Part shown: positions 2,740 through 45,049 of the stretch, piece after piece | Position numbering within the stretch: position 1 is the stretch's first letter | How the letters are laid out: each line of letters opens with the position of its first letter | Sequence record: NC_054928.1 | DNA: 64,000 nucleotides | Reading direction: 5' to 3' (one strand) | Source: Escherichia phage vB_vPM_PD112 | Translations under genes and position numbers: made by a program | The notes under the pieces: generated by a model | Seen by the model: only the letters and a program-made list of their open reading frames with translations | Databases searched by the model: none | Told to the model about the DNA's origin: nothing

Positions 2740-3075
2740 TCACTTATAAAGACACGGAATAGCTTTATAGTGACATGTTACGAATTTTTGTTTAATTTCT
2801 TTTGGCTGCTTAAGACCCAGAGCTACAAAAGGATGCGGAACGTTTCGAATTTGACCAACTGGAAGAGAAGTCAAATCACCAACTTCGCAGAAACCTTCAG
2901 GAACATCAGGACCAACAGAGTGAATTACACACAGTTCAGGAACTTCACCTTGAACACGTTTACCGATAATAAGTCCTGATTCTGTAACTTCTTCATCACC
3001 GGCTTGTGCAGGTTCAGAAACTAAAATAACATATTCACCTACAGCACGAATTGGTAGCTGTTGTACTTCAGACAT
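2740..3075 (-). CDS. 31: gp31 co-chaperonin (GroES-like)
   Basis: 111 aa, near-identical to recalled T4 gp31 sequence. Confidence 0.93.
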
Positions 3076-3132
3076 CGTTTTTTCCTTTTTGTTAACAGAT
3101 GAATTAATAATAACAAATAATTCTTAAAGCAT

Positions 3133-3441
3133 TTATTTACCAATAAATTGAAGCAAATGCTCAACTTTCATGCCATTAACAGAAATCAATTTGTCAATAG
3201 AAAAACCTCGCCATGCACCGAGTTCAACATCAAATACCGGAATCATATCAGTAGATTCTTTCCGAGTAGATTCAGTCAATTTACCGGTTTGCATGGTTGG
3301 CATAAAGTCTGCATCACGAGTACCTTTCATAGTACGAATAGTACCATCAGACTTTTCAAAAACCACGTTTGAAATACCCATGGACAATTTAGTTTTCAAA
3401 ATTTCACGAATTGCTACTTTCTGTTCAGTCGACAGTTTCAT
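3133..3441 (-). CDS. hypothetical protein
   Basis: ORF track, 102 aa. Confidence 0.5.
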   Translation of the reverse strand: MKLSTEQKVAIREILKTKLSMGISNVVFEKSDGTIRTMKGTRDADFMPTMQTGKLTESTRKESTDMIPVFDVELGAWRGFSIDKLISVNGMKVEHLLQFIGK

Positions 3442-3678
3442 TTATTTACCTATCACAGTTTTAATATGGGTTGTTCCACGTTCTTTAAGTGTGGAAAGCA
3501 GTTTTTGGCATTTTTCTAAATCAGATTTCCAACTATACGGCCTATCAATACAAACCCATTCTGACTTATAATACTGCTTCCATTTAGAGAAAAAATATTT
3601 CTTATACTCTACAGCAAATGAGATGTTCTCGTTAGAATAAGAACTAATTGCTGTGAGCTTTACCAAACGAAATTTCAT
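3442..3678 (-). CDS. hypothetical protein
   Basis: ORF track, 78 aa. Confidence 0.45.
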   Translation of the reverse strand: MKFRLVKLTAISSYSNENISFAVEYKKYFFSKWKQYYKSEWVCIDRPYSWKSDLEKCQKLLSTLKERGTTHIKTVIGK

Positions 3679-9811: not shown

Positions 9812-11294
9812 TTAAAAGTATTTTTTAAAACTCATCATAACTTTATCATCAACATCATTATCAATCTGTGCAACAAGGTAAGATGACAGTTCTACTTCTT
9901 GTGGCGCGGATTGAACATTATCAGAATTAAGATATTCACGAATCCAAGGATATGGGTGTTTAACCGGAGCATCGGTAATTGGGCATGGAAGACCACACTG
10001 TTTCATACGAGATACAGTTAAGTAATCAATAAAGCTCCACATGCTATTTGTATTTAATCCAGGAACATCGCCATCTTTAAATAAATGAACTGCCCAGTCT
10101 TTTTCTTGGCGGTTAACTTCCATGAAAATATCAACTGCTTCTTGTTCACACTCTTGAGCAATTTTAACCCATTCATCACCATCAGTGCCAAGTTGAAGTT
10201 GACGAATAATATATTGGGTGCCTTTAAGGTGAAGCTGCTCATCACGTGCAATGAACTTCATAATCTTGGCATTACCTTCCATGATTTCCATGTTCTTATG
10301 GAAGTTAAAGGTACCGTTATGTTCGATTGAGCTCGCTAATTCTCAACCCGTTCTCTTATGAACTGCTACATATTACTATGCAGACCAGACTATATCACAA
10401 TCCCAGAGGGATTCTCCCCATTTCGAGTCGCTTGACCCTACGTCCGAAGACTAGTCGTTGAACCTTGCTTTGCAATTGTGCATCCTCTTAAAAGTATAAT
10501 CATTTATATTATACTAATTAAAGGTGCAAGCAAAACCTTGGCTGCTAGTTTTCCTATAAAGGACTTTCCAGCAATTAAAGGAGTTTTCGATAAACGTTAC
10601 CGTTTAAAGGCGCATTTTACGCAAAAGATACATAAAAACGAATAGCTTCTAAGGCATTAATAACGTGCAAACAGAGGTAAAGAGATTTCATTAAAGCACG
10701 TTTAGCTTCGGCTTCTTGTTTAATAGCTCGGTTTAAACGAAAATCAGCATCAGGAGATTCTTTAGCTAGTTCTACAAATTCTTTAGCATTTTCCCATTCA
10801 CGGGTTTTAATAAGAACATCATCATAATAACGCCCAATGGATTCAGCACGTTTCATAATAGCTTCATCTAATACAATCTCATCAAATACCTTCGATGGAT
10901 CAGTATAAAGATTTCGCATGATATGTGTATATGAACGGCTGTGAATAGTTTCACTAAAAGTCCACGTAGCAACCCATGTATCAAGGCTTGGGTCTGAAAT
11001 TAATGACATAAGTACAGCAGACGGCGCACGACCCTGAATGCTATCCAAAAGTGATTGATACTTCAGATTATTAGTAAAAATATTTTGCTGATACTGAGGA
11101 AGCTTATTAAACTGTGCAGCATCCATCATTAAGTTTACTTCTTCAGGACGCCAGAAAAATGATAAGGACTTCTCTGTAAGTTCTTCAAATACCTTATGTC
11201 GTTGAATATCATAACGTGCAATTCCAAGACCTGAACCGAAGAACATAGGTTCTGTTAAAACATCAACTGGATTTGTATTAAAAACTGTGCTCAT
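9812..11294 (-). CDS. nrdB: ribonucleotide reductase small subunit, split by group I intron: exons 11294..10619 and 10314..9812
   Basis: Exon 1 ends FYVSFA, exon 2 carries MEGNAKI...SDNVQSAPQEVE; predicted junction restores a Cys aligning with E. coli NrdB FA-C-SFAF. Confidence 0.88.
10315..10618 (-). other. group I self-splicing intron in nrdB, ORF-less (about 304 nt)
   Basis: In-frame stop after exon 1; 5' splice site follows U, 3' end G; core similar to td intron (GACUCGAAA..., CAGACUAUAUC). Confidence 0.75.
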
Positions 11295-11345
11295 AAATTT
11301 TCCACTTAGTTAATAGTTGGTGACTCGTCCATGAGTCAAATTATA

Positions 11346-13610
11346 TCATAATTTACAGGATGAACAATCTTCAGCTTTTGGAGTTTCTATTTCATAATCA
11401 TCAGTACCAGAACCATCACGGGTATTATGATAATAGAAATTTTTAATGCCATAATACCATCCGTATAGCATGTCATCAATCATTATTGACATTGGAACCT
11501 TTCCTTTTGGAAAAATCTGCGGGTCATAGTAAGTATTAGCAGAAGCAGATTGGCACACCCATTTCAACATAATAGCTACCTGCGTAAGATAAGGTTTATT
11601 ACCTTTCTTAGCTAATTTCCATGTATAATCATATAGATCTATGTTATGTTCAATATTGGGCACGACTTGATTAAAGGAACCCTCTTTTGACTCTTTAACA
11701 GAGACTGGTCCACGTGGAGGCTCGATACCGTTTGTACTGTTAGAAACTTGGGAAGATGACTCACATGGCATAAGTGCTGATAATGTGCTATTACGGATGC
11801 CAAAGAGCTTAAGGTCTTCCCGCAGCGCCGACCAGTCACAAACGTATTTTGGAGCTGCGATTTGGTCAATCTTTTTATTGTACCAGTCGATAGGTAATTC
11901 GCCTCGAGACCAACGAGTGTCTGAATAATATTCGCAAGGTCCTTTTTCTTTGGCGAGCTTAATGGATGCTTTAATGAGCCCATACTGTAATCTCTCAAAT
12001 AGTTCATGTGTTAAATCGTTAGCATCTTCATAAGAAGCAAAGTTACTTGCCAGCCAAGCTGCATAGTTAGTAACACCTACGCCAAGGTTTCGACGCTTTT
12101 TAGCTTTTTCTGCTTCAGGAACTGGATATCCTTGGTAATCCAACAGATTATCAAGAGCACGAACTTGAACTTCTGCCAATTCATTAATTTTATCTTGGTC
12201 TTGCCAATCGAAGTTATCAAGAACAAAGGCAGAAAGAGTGCAGAGGCCCACTTCAGCGTCAGGTCCATTCACATCATTTGTTGGAATAGCAATTTCACAA
12301 CACAAGTTACTCTGGCGAATAGGCGCCTTTTCACGAATAAACGGAGTATAGTTATTCGTATTATCAATGAACTGCACATAAATCCTTGCTGTTCCTGAGC
12401 GTTCAGTCATGAGCAATTCAAATAGTTCACGGGCTTTAATACGCTTTTTACGAATATTAGGATCTTTTTCTGCCGCTTCGTATAATTCACGGAAACGGTC
12501 TTGGTCTTTAAAATAAGAATAATAAAGTTCGCCACCCATTTCATGCGGACTGAATAAAGTAATGTAATCGTTCTTTCCGAATCGTTCCATCATTAGGTCA
12601 TTCAGTTGAACGCCATAATCCATATGACGGATACGGTTTTCTTCTACACCTTTGTTATTTTTCAAAACGAGAAGATTTTCAACTTCCAAATGCCAAATAG
12701 GATAATAAGCAGTAGCAGCGCCGCCACGAATTCCACCCTGTGAGCATGATTTAACAGCAGTCTGAAAATGTTTCCAAAAAGGAATAACACCAGTATGACG
12801 CACTTCACCTGTGCCAATCTTAGAACCTTCGGCACGAATCATACCAACGTTAATGCCGATTCCAGCTCGTTTAGAAATATACTCAACAATTGAAGCAGAA
12901 GCCTTATTGATAGACTTCAGCGAATCACCTGCCTCAATAACAACGCATGAACTAAATTGCCGAGTTGGAGTACGACATCCAGCCATAATAGGAGTTGGCA
13001 ATGAAATCTGTCGAGTAGATACTGCTTCATAAAAACGAATAACATGTTTTAATCTGTCAACAGGTTCATCTTGATGCAATGCCATTCCAATAGTCATAAA
13101 TGCAAACTGTGGAGTTTCATAAATTTGACCAGTGGTTTTATCTTTAACGAGATATTTTTCTTTTAATTGCATCGCCCCGGAATAAGTAAATTCCATATCC
13201 CGCTCATGCTTAATTTTTGATTCTAAAAATGTAATTTCTTCTGCTGAATATTTTGACAGCAGTTCAGGGTCATATTTACCTTCATTTACACAGTAAGAAA
13301 TATGGTCAATAAATGAACGTGGTTCATACTGACCGTAAACATGCTTACGAAGAGCGAACATTAAACAGCGTGCAGCTACATATTGATAATCAGGCTCTTC
13401 AACTGAAATAGAATTCGCAGCAGCCTTAATGACAATAGTCTGAATGTCATCAGTTGTCATTCCATCACGGAGATATGATTTAATATTTTCATATAATTCA
13501 TAAGGATCTACAGATGTTCCTTCAGCTGCCCAAGATAAAACTTTAATAATTTTTTGCGGGTCAAAGCTTTGAGAAACACCACTACTTTTGATAACATTAA
13601 TTAATTGCAT
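11346..13610 (-). CDS. nrdA: ribonucleotide reductase large subunit
   Basis: 754 aa, class Ia RNR catalytic subunit; T4 NrdA size and position. Confidence 0.95.
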   Translation of the reverse strand: MQLINVIKSSGVSQSFDPQKIIKVLSWAAEGTSVDPYELYENIKSYLRDGMTTDDIQTIVIKAAANSISVEEPDYQYVAARCLMFALRKHVYGQYEPRSFIDHISYCVNEGKYDPELLSKYSAEEITFLESKIKHERDMEFTYSGAMQLKEKYLVKDKTTGQIYETPQFAFMTIGMALHQDEPVDRLKHVIRFYEAVSTRQISLPTPIMAGCRTPTRQFSSCVVIEAGDSLKSINKASASIVEYISKRAGIGINVGMIRAEGSKIGTGEVRHTGVIPFWKHFQTAVKSCSQGGIRGGAATAYYPIWHLEVENLLVLKNNKGVEENRIRHMDYGVQLNDLMMERFGKNDYITLFSPHEMGGELYYSYFKDQDRFRELYEAAEKDPNIRKKRIKARELFELLMTERSGTARIYVQFIDNTNNYTPFIREKAPIRQSNLCCEIAIPTNDVNGPDAEVGLCTLSAFVLDNFDWQDQDKINELAEVQVRALDNLLDYQGYPVPEAEKAKKRRNLGVGVTNYAAWLASNFASYEDANDLTHELFERLQYGLIKASIKLAKEKGPCEYYSDTRWSRGELPIDWYNKKIDQIAAPKYVCDWSALREDLKLFGIRNSTLSALMPCESSSQVSNSTNGIEPPRGPVSVKESKEGSFNQVVPNIEHNIDLYDYTWKLAKKGNKPYLTQVAIMLKWVCQSASANTYYDPQIFPKGKVPMSIMIDDMLYGWYYGIKNFYYHNTRDGSGTDDYEIETPKAEDCSSCKL

Positions 13611-14167: not shown

Positions 14168-15289
14168 TTACACTGCCATTTTTCCTTTAATAGGAGGGTG
14201 TGATTCATAACCTTTAAGAACGAAATCTTTAGGCCTGAGTTTAAGAACATATTTTAATTGTTCTTTAGTAGAAAGATAGCGGAATTTATAAGGTAGACCA
14301 CTTATTACCAGTTCACAAAGCTCTTTAGGTTCACGACGTAAAATTTCTTTACACTGTTCTACGTGATTCATATAGATATGAGTATTACCACCAGAAAATA
14401 TCAAATCTCCTGGAATAAGATTACACATCTTAGCTACAATATGAACTAACGCAGCATATGATGCAATATTAAATGGAAGCATTATGTTCAGATAAGGTCG
14501 TTAATCTTATCCCGGAATTATATCCAGCTGCATGTCACCATGCAGAGCAGACTATATCTCCAACTTGCTAAAGCAAGTTGTCTATCGTTTCGAGTCACTT
14601 GACCCTACTCCCTAAAGGGATAGTCGTTAGGCATTTATGTAGAACCAAAGTCCTACAATTTAGCACGGGATTGTCTACTAGAGAGGTTCCCCGTTTAGAT
14701 AGATTACAAGTATAAGTCACCTTATACTCAGGCCTAAATTAACCCAAGAAAACATCTACAGAACGTTGATACCACTGCAAATCCAAATAGCCATTACGCA
14801 CATTAAACTGATAGAACATGTGACAAGGCGGTAATGCCATTTGCTTAAGTTCAGCTGGATTCCATGCAGAAACAATTTGACGCCTATCATTCGGCAGTTT
14901 TTTAATACGATCAATAACTTCTATAATTTGGTCTACACCGCCAAAATCACGCCATTGTTTTCCATAAATTGGACCAAGTTCACCGCTATGATATCCTAAA
15001 TCTTTTGCTTGATTTTCGTAATTTTCATCCCAGACTGTTTTGCCTTGAATTAATGAATTATGTTGAATTAATCGCAAATCATTTACGTTAGTACTTCCTG
15101 ATAAGAACCACAATAACTCAGAAATACATGCATTCCAGGCGAGCTTCTTAGTCGTTACTGCAGGAAAACCTTTAGTTAAATCCCAACGTAATTTAGTACC
15201 GAACAAAGCAATTGTTCCTGTGCCTGTTCGGTCATCGGTTTCATAACCGTTTTCCAGGATATCTTTAATTAAAAATTGGTATTGTTTCA

Positions 15290-15290
<1 letters not shown>
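14168..15290 (-). CDS. td: thymidylate synthase, split by group I intron: exons 15290..14742 and 14479..14168 (286 aa spliced)
   Basis: Exon 1 ends VDVFLG, exon 2 begins LPFNIASYA; spliced product matches recalled T4 TS; start MKQYQ at 15290. Confidence 0.92.
14480..14741 (-). other. group I self-splicing intron in td, ORF-less (262 nt; no I-TevI-like ORF)
   Basis: Begins UAAUUUAGGCCUGAGUAUAAGGUGACUUAUACUUG, ends CUUAUCUGAACAUAAUG; matches recalled T4 td intron core. Confidence 0.85.
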
Positions 15291-16322
<1,032 letters not shown>

Positions 16323-41931: not shown

Positions 41932-42135
41932 TTAATTCATATTGCGTTTAATAACTTCAACAACTTCTAGTAGTTCATCTTTAGTTGCGGTGTCGGATTG
42001 AATTTTATCTCTAATATCCTTAAAGCGGTTTTTAAACTCTTCAGCTTCTCCCATATCGAAAAAGCGTTGAATGATTCTATATTCTCGATGAACTGCTTTA
42101 TCAAAAAGTTCTAAATTTACTTTGTATGATTTCAT
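41932..42135 (-). CDS. hypothetical protein (rIIA.1 position)
   Basis: ORF track, 67 aa. Confidence 0.5.
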
Positions 42136-42158
42136 TTCAATATCCTCATTTGCTCAAT

Positions 42159-42191
42159 TAATTATACCACATCCTTGTGGTAAAGTAAACT
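42159..42191 (-). promoter_or_regulatory. T4 early-type promoter
   Basis: gtaaac 42185-42190 and attata 42161-42166 on plus strand. Confidence 0.5.
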
Positions 42192-42192
42192 A

Positions 42193-42722
42193 CTGGCTCA
42201 TCCATTCTTTACGAAGGTCAGCATTATCTCCCATGAGCATTTCAAAAAGCTCTTTCCAATTCTCAGGAAGTTTAACAACATCATATACTGGGTTTTGAAT
42301 CATCTCACGATATTCAGATTTTTCCAAAGAGCCAAGTCCCTTAATATAACGGATGCTATGTTTAGGTAGAGCATCTTTGGCACTCTCATATTCAGCGACT
42401 GTATAAAACCATTCTTGTTTTTTGCCGACCTGAGCGATGATTACAGGAGTTTTGACAAAGCGAATTCTTCCTTGTTCAAACAGTTCTGGCCAATTACTAA
42501 AAAATCCGAGCAGAGAAGGATAAATAGAACCTAATCCAATAATCTCTTAATTATGAGGTATTTCTATAGATAGCCCGAAGGCTATCCATCGTGATCTGCG
42601 TCTGTCATAATAGCGACATTCGCATAGTTCATTGAAGAGGATTTAATAGAACGACGAACATTGTTCTGCAATTTATATTTTTTCATATCAACGCTAGAAG
42701 AATCAATTTTTACAAATTTCAT
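42193..42722 (-). CDS. 60: DNA topoisomerase II small subunit gp60; two coding segments 42722..42585 and 42534..42193 joined by translational bypass
   Basis: Segment 1 MKFVKIDSS...MTDADHDG ends GGA-UAG; segment 2 LGSIYPSLLGFFSNWPEL... resumes after landing GGA; 160 aa total as in T4. Confidence 0.9.
42535..42584 (-). other. gene 60 50-nt translational bypass (hop) element
   Basis: UAG stop after take-off GGA, hairpin UAGCCUUCGGGCUA, landing GGA at 42535-42537. Confidence 0.9.
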
Positions 42723-43521
42723 TATACACCTCATAGAACTTTTCATCAGGAATCCAACCGCGTTTAAATTCATTAAATGCTCGGCCGAATAATTTTGAAT
42801 TCACAGTTATATTATTAACTGATTTCCATTTAGCAACTCCTGTTCGTTTATAATGATCGGGGTCATATTTCGTGACGTACCATTCATATAAATTTGGTAT
42901 TAATTTTACAGCCTCTGGATTTGTCGCTGATTTATTATACCATGGTTTCGCTTTTTCAAGTTCAGCTGCTTTTGCAGTAGCAGCAACAGTATTTCCAATA
43001 CCAACTAATTTTTCAGCTTTAATGCGTGGATCATTAACATGAAGACGAAAAACTTCGCCCTTTTCATTTTTAAAGCATGTCATGCCTTTAATTCCAGGAA
43101 GCTTAACACCTTTATTAACACCACACCATTCCTTTGGGTTAAATGATCCTTTAATTAATAAGGCGCATTTACCCGATTTAATACTTCTCATTAAAACTTT
43201 ATCTTTCATAAAGTTTTTTGACCATTCAGATACTGCTCTTTGATGGTAAATTCTAGCAATTTCATATAATTTACTAGAACGTAAATATTTTTCAGTGTTT
43301 AACATTCTATTCATCGCATATGCCATTTCACGATTACGATGAATTTTATATAGTAGAAAATGTGCTAAAAAGTGTTCACGAAAAGTCAGTTTCACCAAAT
43401 TTTCTTTATCATCAGAACCTCCCATTGATCTTGGAAGGATATGATGAATTTCACCCTTAAATTTAGAAACGCGGGTTTTACCCCGCACTATTAAGTCATT
43501 ATAGATTTTTTCGTAATTCAC
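42703..43521 (-). mobile_element. mobA: HNH homing endonuclease (MobA-like) between genes 39 and 60
   Basis: 272 aa with HNH motif GEIHHILPRSMGGSDDKENLVKLTFREHFLAH. Confidence 0.8.
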
Positions 43522-45049
43522 CTACTGTTATCCATTTACCATTAATCTGTACTTCATCATTTTCATTTACGATAATTGTATCGCCATTTAGTTCGAAAGT
43601 AAACCACTCGCCATCTTCTTTTTCTTCAAACGCCTTTTCACCAAGAACTAATCCAGTGATTGCGCAAATATCAAATAGTTCTTTGTTTTTAAGCATATCG
43701 GCATATGACATACCCCAGCTATTAAGAACTTTACCGCGCAATGGATAACCACCATGAAGTTCTTTATCACGAACATCAATAAGATATCCAATAGCAGAAT
43801 CACCCTCAGTCAAGAAAAGAGTAGTATCAGCATCTTTACCACAAAGATTCGCTTTGATATGTTTATGAACCTTAGCTTTAGAAGCCTTTTTAGCTGCTTT
43901 AGTTTCTGCTGCTTTTTCTGCCGCCAATTTACGAGCCAAAGCAGCTTCGATAATCGGCATTAGAATTGCTTCATTATTTAGAATAGCGCGTGAAATCTTT
44001 TTAGCATCAAGCTGAATATGACTACGAATTTCACCAAAAGGAGAAGTAAGTCGTTCTTTAGTTTGAGAATCAAATCGCATGTTTTTCATATCACGGACAA
44101 ACATAACGATAGTCAAACATTCTTTGACACGTGCTTTAGTTACATCAATTTTGAATTTACGTTTGATTTGTGGAATAAGGTCTTCACAAATATCATCCAT
44201 AACACAATCAATGTGATGGCCACCATTCTTAGTATGAATGTTATTCACATAAGTTAATTGACGAAAACCATCCGGTGAACGACCAACAGCAATAGAACAA
44301 TTTTCTTGTTCTTGAACGATAGCATGTTCATCATACTGTCGTGCATATTTCTTAAAATTACCCTGAACCTTTTTACCATTAAAGGTAAATTGAATATCAG
44401 GATAAACTACTGCAAGTGTCTGGAGACGATCCAGTGTAATGTCAAGATAAACTTGAGATAGCTCATTAGTTTCAAATGACATAAAATCAGGAATGAAAGT
44501 AACGCGAGTTCCTTTCCATTTTCCAGGAATAGTTTCCCAGGATTTATTTTCCATGCCATTTGAACAACGAACTACAATATTATTTTGACCATCGCCGGTT
44601 TCACCGACAAACATCACAGAAAAAATATTAGTTAAACTAGAACCAACACCATTCATACCACCAGTGACGCGTTCTTTATCATCACCGAAGTTACCACCTG
44701 CTTTTGGAATAGTCCATGCAGCAACTGGACCAGGAATTTCTTCACCGGTAGGTGTTTTAACCATCGCCTGTGGAATACCGCGACCGTTATCTTCAACTGT
44801 TACTTGATTGTTTTTAATAGTAACATTAATTTTATTTGCGAATTTAAACTTAGTACGAATACCTTCATCTACTGAGTTATCGATAATTTCATCAATAAGC
44901 TTAACAAGACCAGGTACATACTGAACACTTTCCCATTTACCAAACAGAAAGCGCTCATGCATTTCATTAGCTGAAGAGCCAATGTACATGCCGCTACGCT
45001 TTTTGATATGTTCAATATCGCTCAGAATTTTAATTTCATTCTTAATCAT
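43499..45049 (-). CDS. 39: DNA topoisomerase II large subunit gp39 (GyrB-like ATPase part)
   Basis: 516 aa from MIKNEIKIL; ATPase motifs; T4 gp39 size. Confidence 0.93.
   Translation of the reverse strand: MIKNEIKILSDIEHIKKRSGMYIGSSANEMHERFLFGKWESVQYVPGLVKLIDEIIDNSVDEGIRTKFKFANKINVTIKNNQVTVEDNGRGIPQAMVKTPTGEEIPGPVAAWTIPKAGGNFGDDKERVTGGMNGVGSSLTNIFSVMFVGETGDGQNNIVVRCSNGMENKSWETIPGKWKGTRVTFIPDFMSFETNELSQVYLDITLDRLQTLAVVYPDIQFTFNGKKVQGNFKKYARQYDEHAIVQEQENCSIAVGRSPDGFRQLTYVNNIHTKNGGHHIDCVMDDICEDLIPQIKRKFKIDVTKARVKECLTIVMFVRDMKNMRFDSQTKERLTSPFGEIRSHIQLDAKKISRAILNNEAILMPIIEAALARKLAAEKAAETKAAKKASKAKVHKHIKANLCGKDADTTLFLTEGDSAIGYLIDVRDKELHGGYPLRGKVLNSWGMSYADMLKNKELFDICAITGLVLGEKAFEEKEDGEWFTFELNGDTIIVNENDEVQINGKWITVGELRKNL

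Follow-up and report, generated by a model that had tools for sequence, protein, structure and literature searches.

A gene 60 bypass gap identical in sequence to that of phage T4, next to an intact mobA gene, in Escherichia phage vB_vPM_PD112

Described bypass systems and the present locus

Gene 60 of phage T4 is the founding case of programmed translational bypassing and has been studied since 1988, so that a bypass element of this kind is already known. The T4 bypass was reportedly described by Huang et al. in 1988 and by Weiss et al. in 1990, and Bonocora is said to have described MobA as a homing-endonuclease mobile cassette in 2011. During T4 gene 60 translation, the nascent peptide, in contact with the exit tunnel, locks the peptidyl transferase centre, a short hairpin in the A site blocks RF1, EF-G drives pseudo-translocation, and the hyper-rotated ribosome holds peptidyl-tRNA-Gly while sliding over 50 nt, after which roughly one ribosome in two lands at GGA and resumes translation (PMC7026636, PMC5462505, PMC11194080, bioRxiv 10.1101/2022.08.31.505936). 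Inside the exit tunnel, Tyr16, Arg24 and Ser28 touch ribosomal proteins L22 and L4, and the wider list of nascent-peptide residues comes from the same study (PMC5462505), with pausing at KKYK taken from another (PMC11194080). The MobA cassette has been described as an element of about 1.1 kb in the Topo2L gene, with an HNH ORF of 269-279 aa lying out of frame between the two extensions (Manning & Atkins 2022).

The locus under study lies on the minus strand of a 64,000-nt stretch of Escherichia phage vB_vPM_PD112 (NC_054928.1), referred to here as the window. It resembles T4 gene 60, which belongs to clade 1 (Manning & Atkins 2022), in the GGA/GGA codon pair, the UAG, the UUCG take-off stem-loop, the GAG mini Shine-Dalgarno and the nascent peptide, as well as in its place within the Toprim motif and its linkage to mobA. 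It differs from T4 in the flanks, which are about 4% apart (68 differences over 1551 nt in gene 39 and 108 over 2782 nt downstream), and in three synonymous changes clustered 52-67 nt 3′ of the landing codon (42483, 42475 and 42468, minus strand), which weaken a predicted 3′ stem-loop.

The MobA cassettes of other Straboviridae, namely those of Salmonella phage S16, Acinetobacter phage KARL-1, Proteus phage PM2 and Shewanella phage Thanatos-1, share with the window the insertion point, a UAG after the take-off codon, a stem-loop tip of the CC-UUCG-GG type, take-off and landing codons that match, and a gap whose 3′ half is AU-rich. However, their codon pairs depart from the GGA/GGA of the window (GGU/GGC in S16, GAU/GAC in KARL-1, GGG/GGA in PM2 and GGU/GGU in Thanatos-1), and the DNA of their ORF1 plus gap is just 70-81% identical to that of the window. 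ORF1 and ORF2 of PM2 (MF001355, ~449-500) lie in one frame, which reads ...DADVDG, a stop, and then PSGYSLTYLTNKEIIGQGSIYPSLL; in principle, a single readthrough of the UAG could also join both parts there, unlike in the window.

In the mitochondria of Magnusiomyces capitatus, the 'byp' elements (Lang et al. 2014) likewise have 27-55 nt bypassed, matched codons and a take-off hairpin, but they are read by eukaryotic mitochondrial ribosomes, occur as dozens of inserts per genome, place an unassigned sense codon rather than a stop in the A site, and have neither a linked homing endonuclease nor sequence homology. Group I introns and inteins are similar in that a mobile endonuclease gene interrupts an essential gene whose product survives, whereas they depend on RNA or protein splicing, in place of ribosome bypass together with the splitting of a protein into two tailed subunits as found here.

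Layout of gene 60 and the joining of its two parts

Gene 60 starts from the ATG at 42722 and runs for 46 codons, ending in ...DADHDG (Table 1). Its frame then closes at GGA-UAG, as the first-pass annotation had claimed, and the 50-nt gap with its landing GGA was recovered to the base at the positions given there, on the minus strand. The landing codon is the only GGA in the gap, and the take-off and landing GGA make up a matched pair decoded by the same tRNA. After the gap, decoding would start with UUA at 42534, followed by LGSIYPSLLGFFSNWPEL..., in a frame that is open for 114 codons; 46 and 114 codons add up to the 160-aa joined gp60 product that had been expected, and the end noted for it (42193) coincides with the final base of the last sense codon, with the TAG stop at 42192-42190. 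The predicted junction in the joined product reads ...AIMTDADHDG-LGSIYPSLLGFF..., and ORF2 contains the remaining Toprim region and the TOPRIM_C region (Pfam TOPRIM_C, 6.4e-08). With 3 mismatches permitted, the 19-nt take-off motif was found in 1 copy in the 64-kb window, against 0.00 expected, and its presence is not accidental.

Table 1. Coordinates of gene 60, its bypass signals and the adjoining cassette in the window
Feature	Position	Strand	Basis
Gene 39, N-terminal part of topoisomerase II large subunit, 516 aa	43499..45049	-	RB27 gp39 alignment
MobA mobile cassette, 1109 nt	42526..43634	-	homology break versus IME537
mobA, intact 272-aa HNH homing endonuclease gene	42703..43521	-	ORF; PHROG 655
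Putative Shine-Dalgarno-like GAGG, 6 nt ahead of the gene 60 ATG	42729..42732	-	reading of the sequence, inferred
Gene 60 ORF1, codons 1-46 (MKFVKIDSSSVDMKKYKLQNNVRRSIKSSSMNYANVAIMTDADHDG)	42585..42722	-	translation; identity to T4 and PDB 5np6_C
Codons 14-30 (KKYKLQNNVRRSIKSSS), core of the nascent-peptide signal, with Tyr16, Arg24 and Ser28	42633..42683	-	T4-identical
Predicted 5′ stem-loop	42592..42631	-	-10.8 kcal/mol; sequence T4-identical
Take-off stem-loop, 10-bp stem and UUCG tetraloop, GGA and UAG in the 5′ arm	42566..42589	-	fold and covariation
Take-off codon GGA (Gly46)	42585..42587	-	
UAG directly after the take-off codon	42582..42584	-	
Coding gap, exactly 50 nt, TAGCCTTCGGGCTATCTATAGAAATACCTCATAATTAAGAGATTATTGGA	42535..42584	-	equals T4 misc_feature 2803-2852
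GAG mini Shine-Dalgarno, 6 nt before the landing codon	42544..42546	-	gap sequence; role from Manning & Atkins 2022
Landing codon GGA, end of the gap	42535..42537	-	
Gene 60 ORF2, codons 47-160 and TAG stop	42190..42534	-	translation
Predicted 3′ stem-loop (forward slippage barrier region)	42467..42518	-	three synonymous differences from T4

Megablast of positions 42150-42760 (611 nt) against the phage collection gave 100% identity to Escherichia phage vB_EcoM_CE1 over 611 nt and 99.0% identity to all T4 records. Six differences from T4 were found in the 611 nt, five of them in gene 60, each synonymous and each 3′ of the landing site. Base for base, the gap equals the bypass feature of T4 (AF158101 2803-2852), the reference record of which gives gene 60 as a CDS joined from two pieces together with a misc_feature 'non-coding translational bypass region'. 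ORF1, the gap and a further 9 nt, 197 nt in all, agree with T4 throughout (100% identity, E = 2e-96), and 25 records, every T4 entry among them, match this stretch at 100%. The joined protein is identical at 160 of 160 residues to T4 gp60 and, in the PDB, to the gp60 part of the T4 topoisomerase II gp39-gp60 chain (8yo3 and others). Residues 1-46 are identical at 46/46 positions to T4 and to chain C of 5np6, the nascent peptide of the cryo-EM take-off complex, and the nascent-peptide residues KKYK, Tyr16, Arg24, Ser28, Tyr33, Met39, Thr40 and His44 are all present in ORF1.

The comparison with T4 gene 60 proposed in the first-pass annotation thus found no sequence change in the take-off/landing GGA pair, and the differences from T4 fall only outside the cassette-encoded signals. 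The designation as the classic T4 ribosome-hopping site stands, with gap, ORF1 and joined protein all T4-identical. Judged from these sequences, the element is almost certainly the programmed translational bypass of phage T4 gene 60, carried by a Tequatrovirus close to but distinct from T4, and we infer from the identity with T4 that the hop would operate in the present phage as well.

The unsplit homologues RB27 gp39 (605 aa) and IME537 (606 aa) run through the junction as IMTDADHDGLGSIYPSLLGFF with no break, and a wider reading of both, ...NIAIMTDADHDGLGSIYPSLLGFF..., is uninterrupted too. This indicates that the bypass-joined sequence is the ancestral protein sequence, and at the Toprim DxDxD motif the joined product restores the topoisomerase large-subunit sequence without a break. 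A tblastn search with the joined protein returned 1936 phage records, and among the cassette-free records listed, residues ~27-160 align in one piece over the junction. Since an in-frame UAG follows codon 46, every frame of the gap is closed and fragments are annotated in several GenBank records, gene 60 could be taken for a pseudogene, in which translation stops at the UAG and the downstream 114 codons are decaying. Yet ORF2 is open over these 114 codons and departs from T4 at five positions, each synonymous, with a protein that is 100% T4-identical; it is 95% identical to the matching part of the unsplit homologues, and it supplies the rest of the Toprim DxDxD region absent from gp39. The identical T4 sequence, moreover, yields full-length gp60 in solved topoisomerase II structures and in published bypass assays, and we regard a decaying pseudogene as extremely improbable.

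The stops in the gap (TAG at 42584 and 42566, TAA at 42553 and 42549) close all three frames, and past the TAA at 42549 the frame of ORF2 offers no ATG, GTG or TTG until the TTG at 42327, its first start codon. Thus, readthrough, simple frameshift and independent initiation cannot give the conserved C-terminal domain. That ORF2 is a separate polypeptide, made by independent initiation or by re-initiation after the UAG, might be suggested by the GAG 6 nt 5′ of the landing GGA, which is readable as a weak Shine-Dalgarno; a start at TTG 42327, however, would lose 69 conserved residues, the unsplit homologues run on across the junction, and mass spectrometry on the identical T4 sequence found only the product landing at the same GGA, according to the cited literature. 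A separate ORF2 polypeptide consequently carries hardly any weight.

The 50 nt could also be lost or skipped by RNA splicing, stop-codon readthrough or a simple +1/-1 frameshift, and two group I introns in other genes of the window imply that RNA splicing does occur in the phage. Nevertheless, 50 nt is far below the size of a group I intron, positions 42100-42900 gave no Rfam match of any kind even at E <= 1, and the founding T4 paper, as far as its title goes ('A persistent untranslated sequence...'), has the 50 nt kept in the mRNA. Readthrough would meet the second in-frame TAG at 42566, and a frameshift would meet the TAA at 42553 or 42549 in either other frame, which makes these routes about as implausible as the preceding two readings. 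The two parts of gene 60 can be joined by a hop alone.

RNA signals on the take-off and landing sides

The hairpin noted in the first-pass annotation, UAGCCUUCGGGCUA, is present, but it proved to be the upper part of a longer stem of 10 bp, in which the take-off GGA is included. The folding energy of this take-off stem-loop is -14.7 kcal/mol (z = -4.3), a value reached by 0 of 200 shuffled sequences. An alignment of 6 cassette sequences, the diverged ones coming from S16, KARL-1, PM2, Thanatos-1 and HY01, was used for covariation and spans five phage clades; in the take-off helix, 97% of the cells are paired and 4 pairs have compensatory changes, one of them (A-U / U-A / G-C) involving the third base of the take-off codon. 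As a control, sliding the 3′ partners by 1-3 columns left only 18-44% of the cells paired. The take-off stem-loop is real, and it is the only one among the take-off, 5′ and 3′ stem-loops that folding energy alone supports: the predicted 5′ stem-loop (z = -1.06) and the predicted 3′ stem-loop (z = +0.79) fold no better than shuffled sequence, and both are poorly conserved according to the literature. No curated RNA family for the bypass element was found in Rfam (scan of 42100-42900, E <= 1). Toward its end the gap reads GAG, AUUAUU and the landing GGA, and a mini Shine-Dalgarno has been defined as GAG, GGG, GGA or AGG lying in AU-rich surroundings 5-7 nt before the landing codon (Manning & Atkins 2022).

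On the landing side, the 73-nt 3′ region folds at -11.5 kcal/mol here versus -15.9 kcal/mol in T4. Two of the three synonymous changes, those at 42475 and 42468, carry the bases of the cassette-free phage IME537, which traces both to the host background rather than to the cassette. Because the 3′ stem-loop is predicted to be about 4 kcal/mol weaker, bypass efficiency could differ from that of T4. It is conceivable, though rather unlikely in our estimate, that the phage represents a natural landing-side variant, which would combine a weaker predicted 3′ stem-loop with T4-identical cassette signals and in which bypass efficiency may differ; if true, it would offer a natural test of the importance of the forward slippage barrier.

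The steps of the mechanism, the efficiency of about 50% and the protection from MobA are known from published T4 experiments on the identical sequence. In the present phage, the ribosome would translate 46 codons and be slowed as the nascent peptide takes hold of the exit tunnel through KKYK..., Tyr16, Arg24, Ser28, Tyr33, Met39, Thr40 and His44. Once it reaches GGA-UAG, the upper end of the take-off stem-loop would form in the A site, so that the release factor is blocked and EF-G could drive pseudo-translocation; peptidyl-tRNA-Gly would let go of the GGA but stay on the ribosome, which would slide over 50 nt. Refolding of upstream RNA, the GAG mini Shine-Dalgarno and downstream structure may then aid re-pairing of the tRNA with the second GGA, and decoding would restart at UUA to give the 160-aa gp60, which could form the phage topoisomerase II together with gp39 and gp52. 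As DNA, the 50-nt insert might shield the carrier genome from its own HNH nicking endonuclease MobA: according to the literature, MobA nicks cassette-free target DNA and the gap prevents self-nicking, and in the present phage the ORF is intact and its product may be active.

The MobA cassette, its genomic setting and annotation

The mobA product matches the PHROG 655 homing endonuclease at 2.5e-57 and has an HNH motif, with a Pfam HNH match that is weak and under Pfam's cut-off. The gene shares 23 nt with the 3′ end of gene 39 and 20 nt with the 5′ end of gene 60, and its length and layout are those of T4T mobA. In gp39, which contains the Pfam domains HATPase_c and DNA_gyraseB, residues 1-473 are ancestral and residues 474-516 are cassette-encoded, as delimited by the alignment to RB27 gp39. 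Homology to IME537 ends at 43635 and returns at 42525, and the cassette between them, comprising a 43-aa C-terminal extension of gp39, mobA, the N-terminal extension of gene 60, the bypass gap and 9 nt past the landing codon, stands in place of 67 nt of IME537. It fits the description of the published MobA element, which has 1097-1106 nt, a deletion of 55-75 nt, a gp39 extension of ~44 aa and, in clade 1, 9 extra nt past the landing codon. The first-pass annotation makes no mention of this larger cassette.

The cassette matches most T4 records at 99.6% identity and the cassettes of 14 other phages at 99.5-100%; near-identical cassettes together with T4 flanks diverged by ~4% give the pattern expected of a recently spreading mobile element. 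IME537, with its unsplit gene 39, is the most identical relative listed over 25 kb (98.5%, with 95% of the query covered), and from the first base past the cassette the 3′ flank has 1 mismatch in 414 nt to this cassette-free phage, which is compatible with recent homing and hardly any co-conversion tract 3′ of the insert. Across positions 30001-55000 of the window, no single phage record matches closely throughout, the best ones reaching 95-98.5% in several pieces; IME537 is the most identical there but without the mobA cassette, CE1 is identical around gene 60, and the genome looks like a Tequatrovirus mosaic.

Relative to mobA of the window, 11 additional bases are scattered through the gene in the T4 reference AF158101/NC_000866 (AF158101 2262-3058), which is labelled with a 'mobA pseudogene' and '60.1'. 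In 14 other T4-named records (T4T HM137666, OZ209023, KJ477684 and others), mobA has the length found in the window, and T4T annotates it as intact. The T4 'mobA pseudogene' may hence be an artefact of an old reference sequence rather than a feature of T4.

Other mobile elements of the window include two group I introns (Rfam RF00028, 73.8 and 68.6 bits) at 14528-14751 and 10366-10635 on the minus strand, the hosts of which look like td (exons 14739-15302 and 14168-14482) and nrdB (exons 10617-11294 and 9812-10291). The T4 td intron carries I-TevI. In the window, the gaps between the td and nrdB exons measure ~260-330 nt and contain no ORF of at least 90 aa, and both introns seem to be without endonuclease genes. 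According to the literature, the homing endonuclease gene mobE sits between nrdA and nrdB in T4-type phages; here nrdA (11346-13610) and nrdB exon 1 (10617-11294) are just 51 nt apart (11294-11346, minus strand), which indicates that mobE is absent between them.

The warning that gene 60 is easily mis-annotated was well founded. In the closest record, vB_EcoM_CE1 (ON229909.1), gene 60 appears as two unrelated CDSs at 3039-3179 and 3434-3571, fragments of 46 aa and of 45 aa from a TTG start, with mobA called 'hypothetical protein', and many records carry 'DNA topoisomerase ... (x2)'. Mis-annotation of the bypass gene is systematic. The proper annotation would be complement(join(42190..42534, 42585..42722)), adjoining an intact mobA. 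The element adds nothing new to the biology of bypassing, and its use lies in annotation, since automatic pipelines split or drop gene 60. Together with IME537, the present genome provides a further near-identical cassette-positive/cassette-negative pair for the study of homing.
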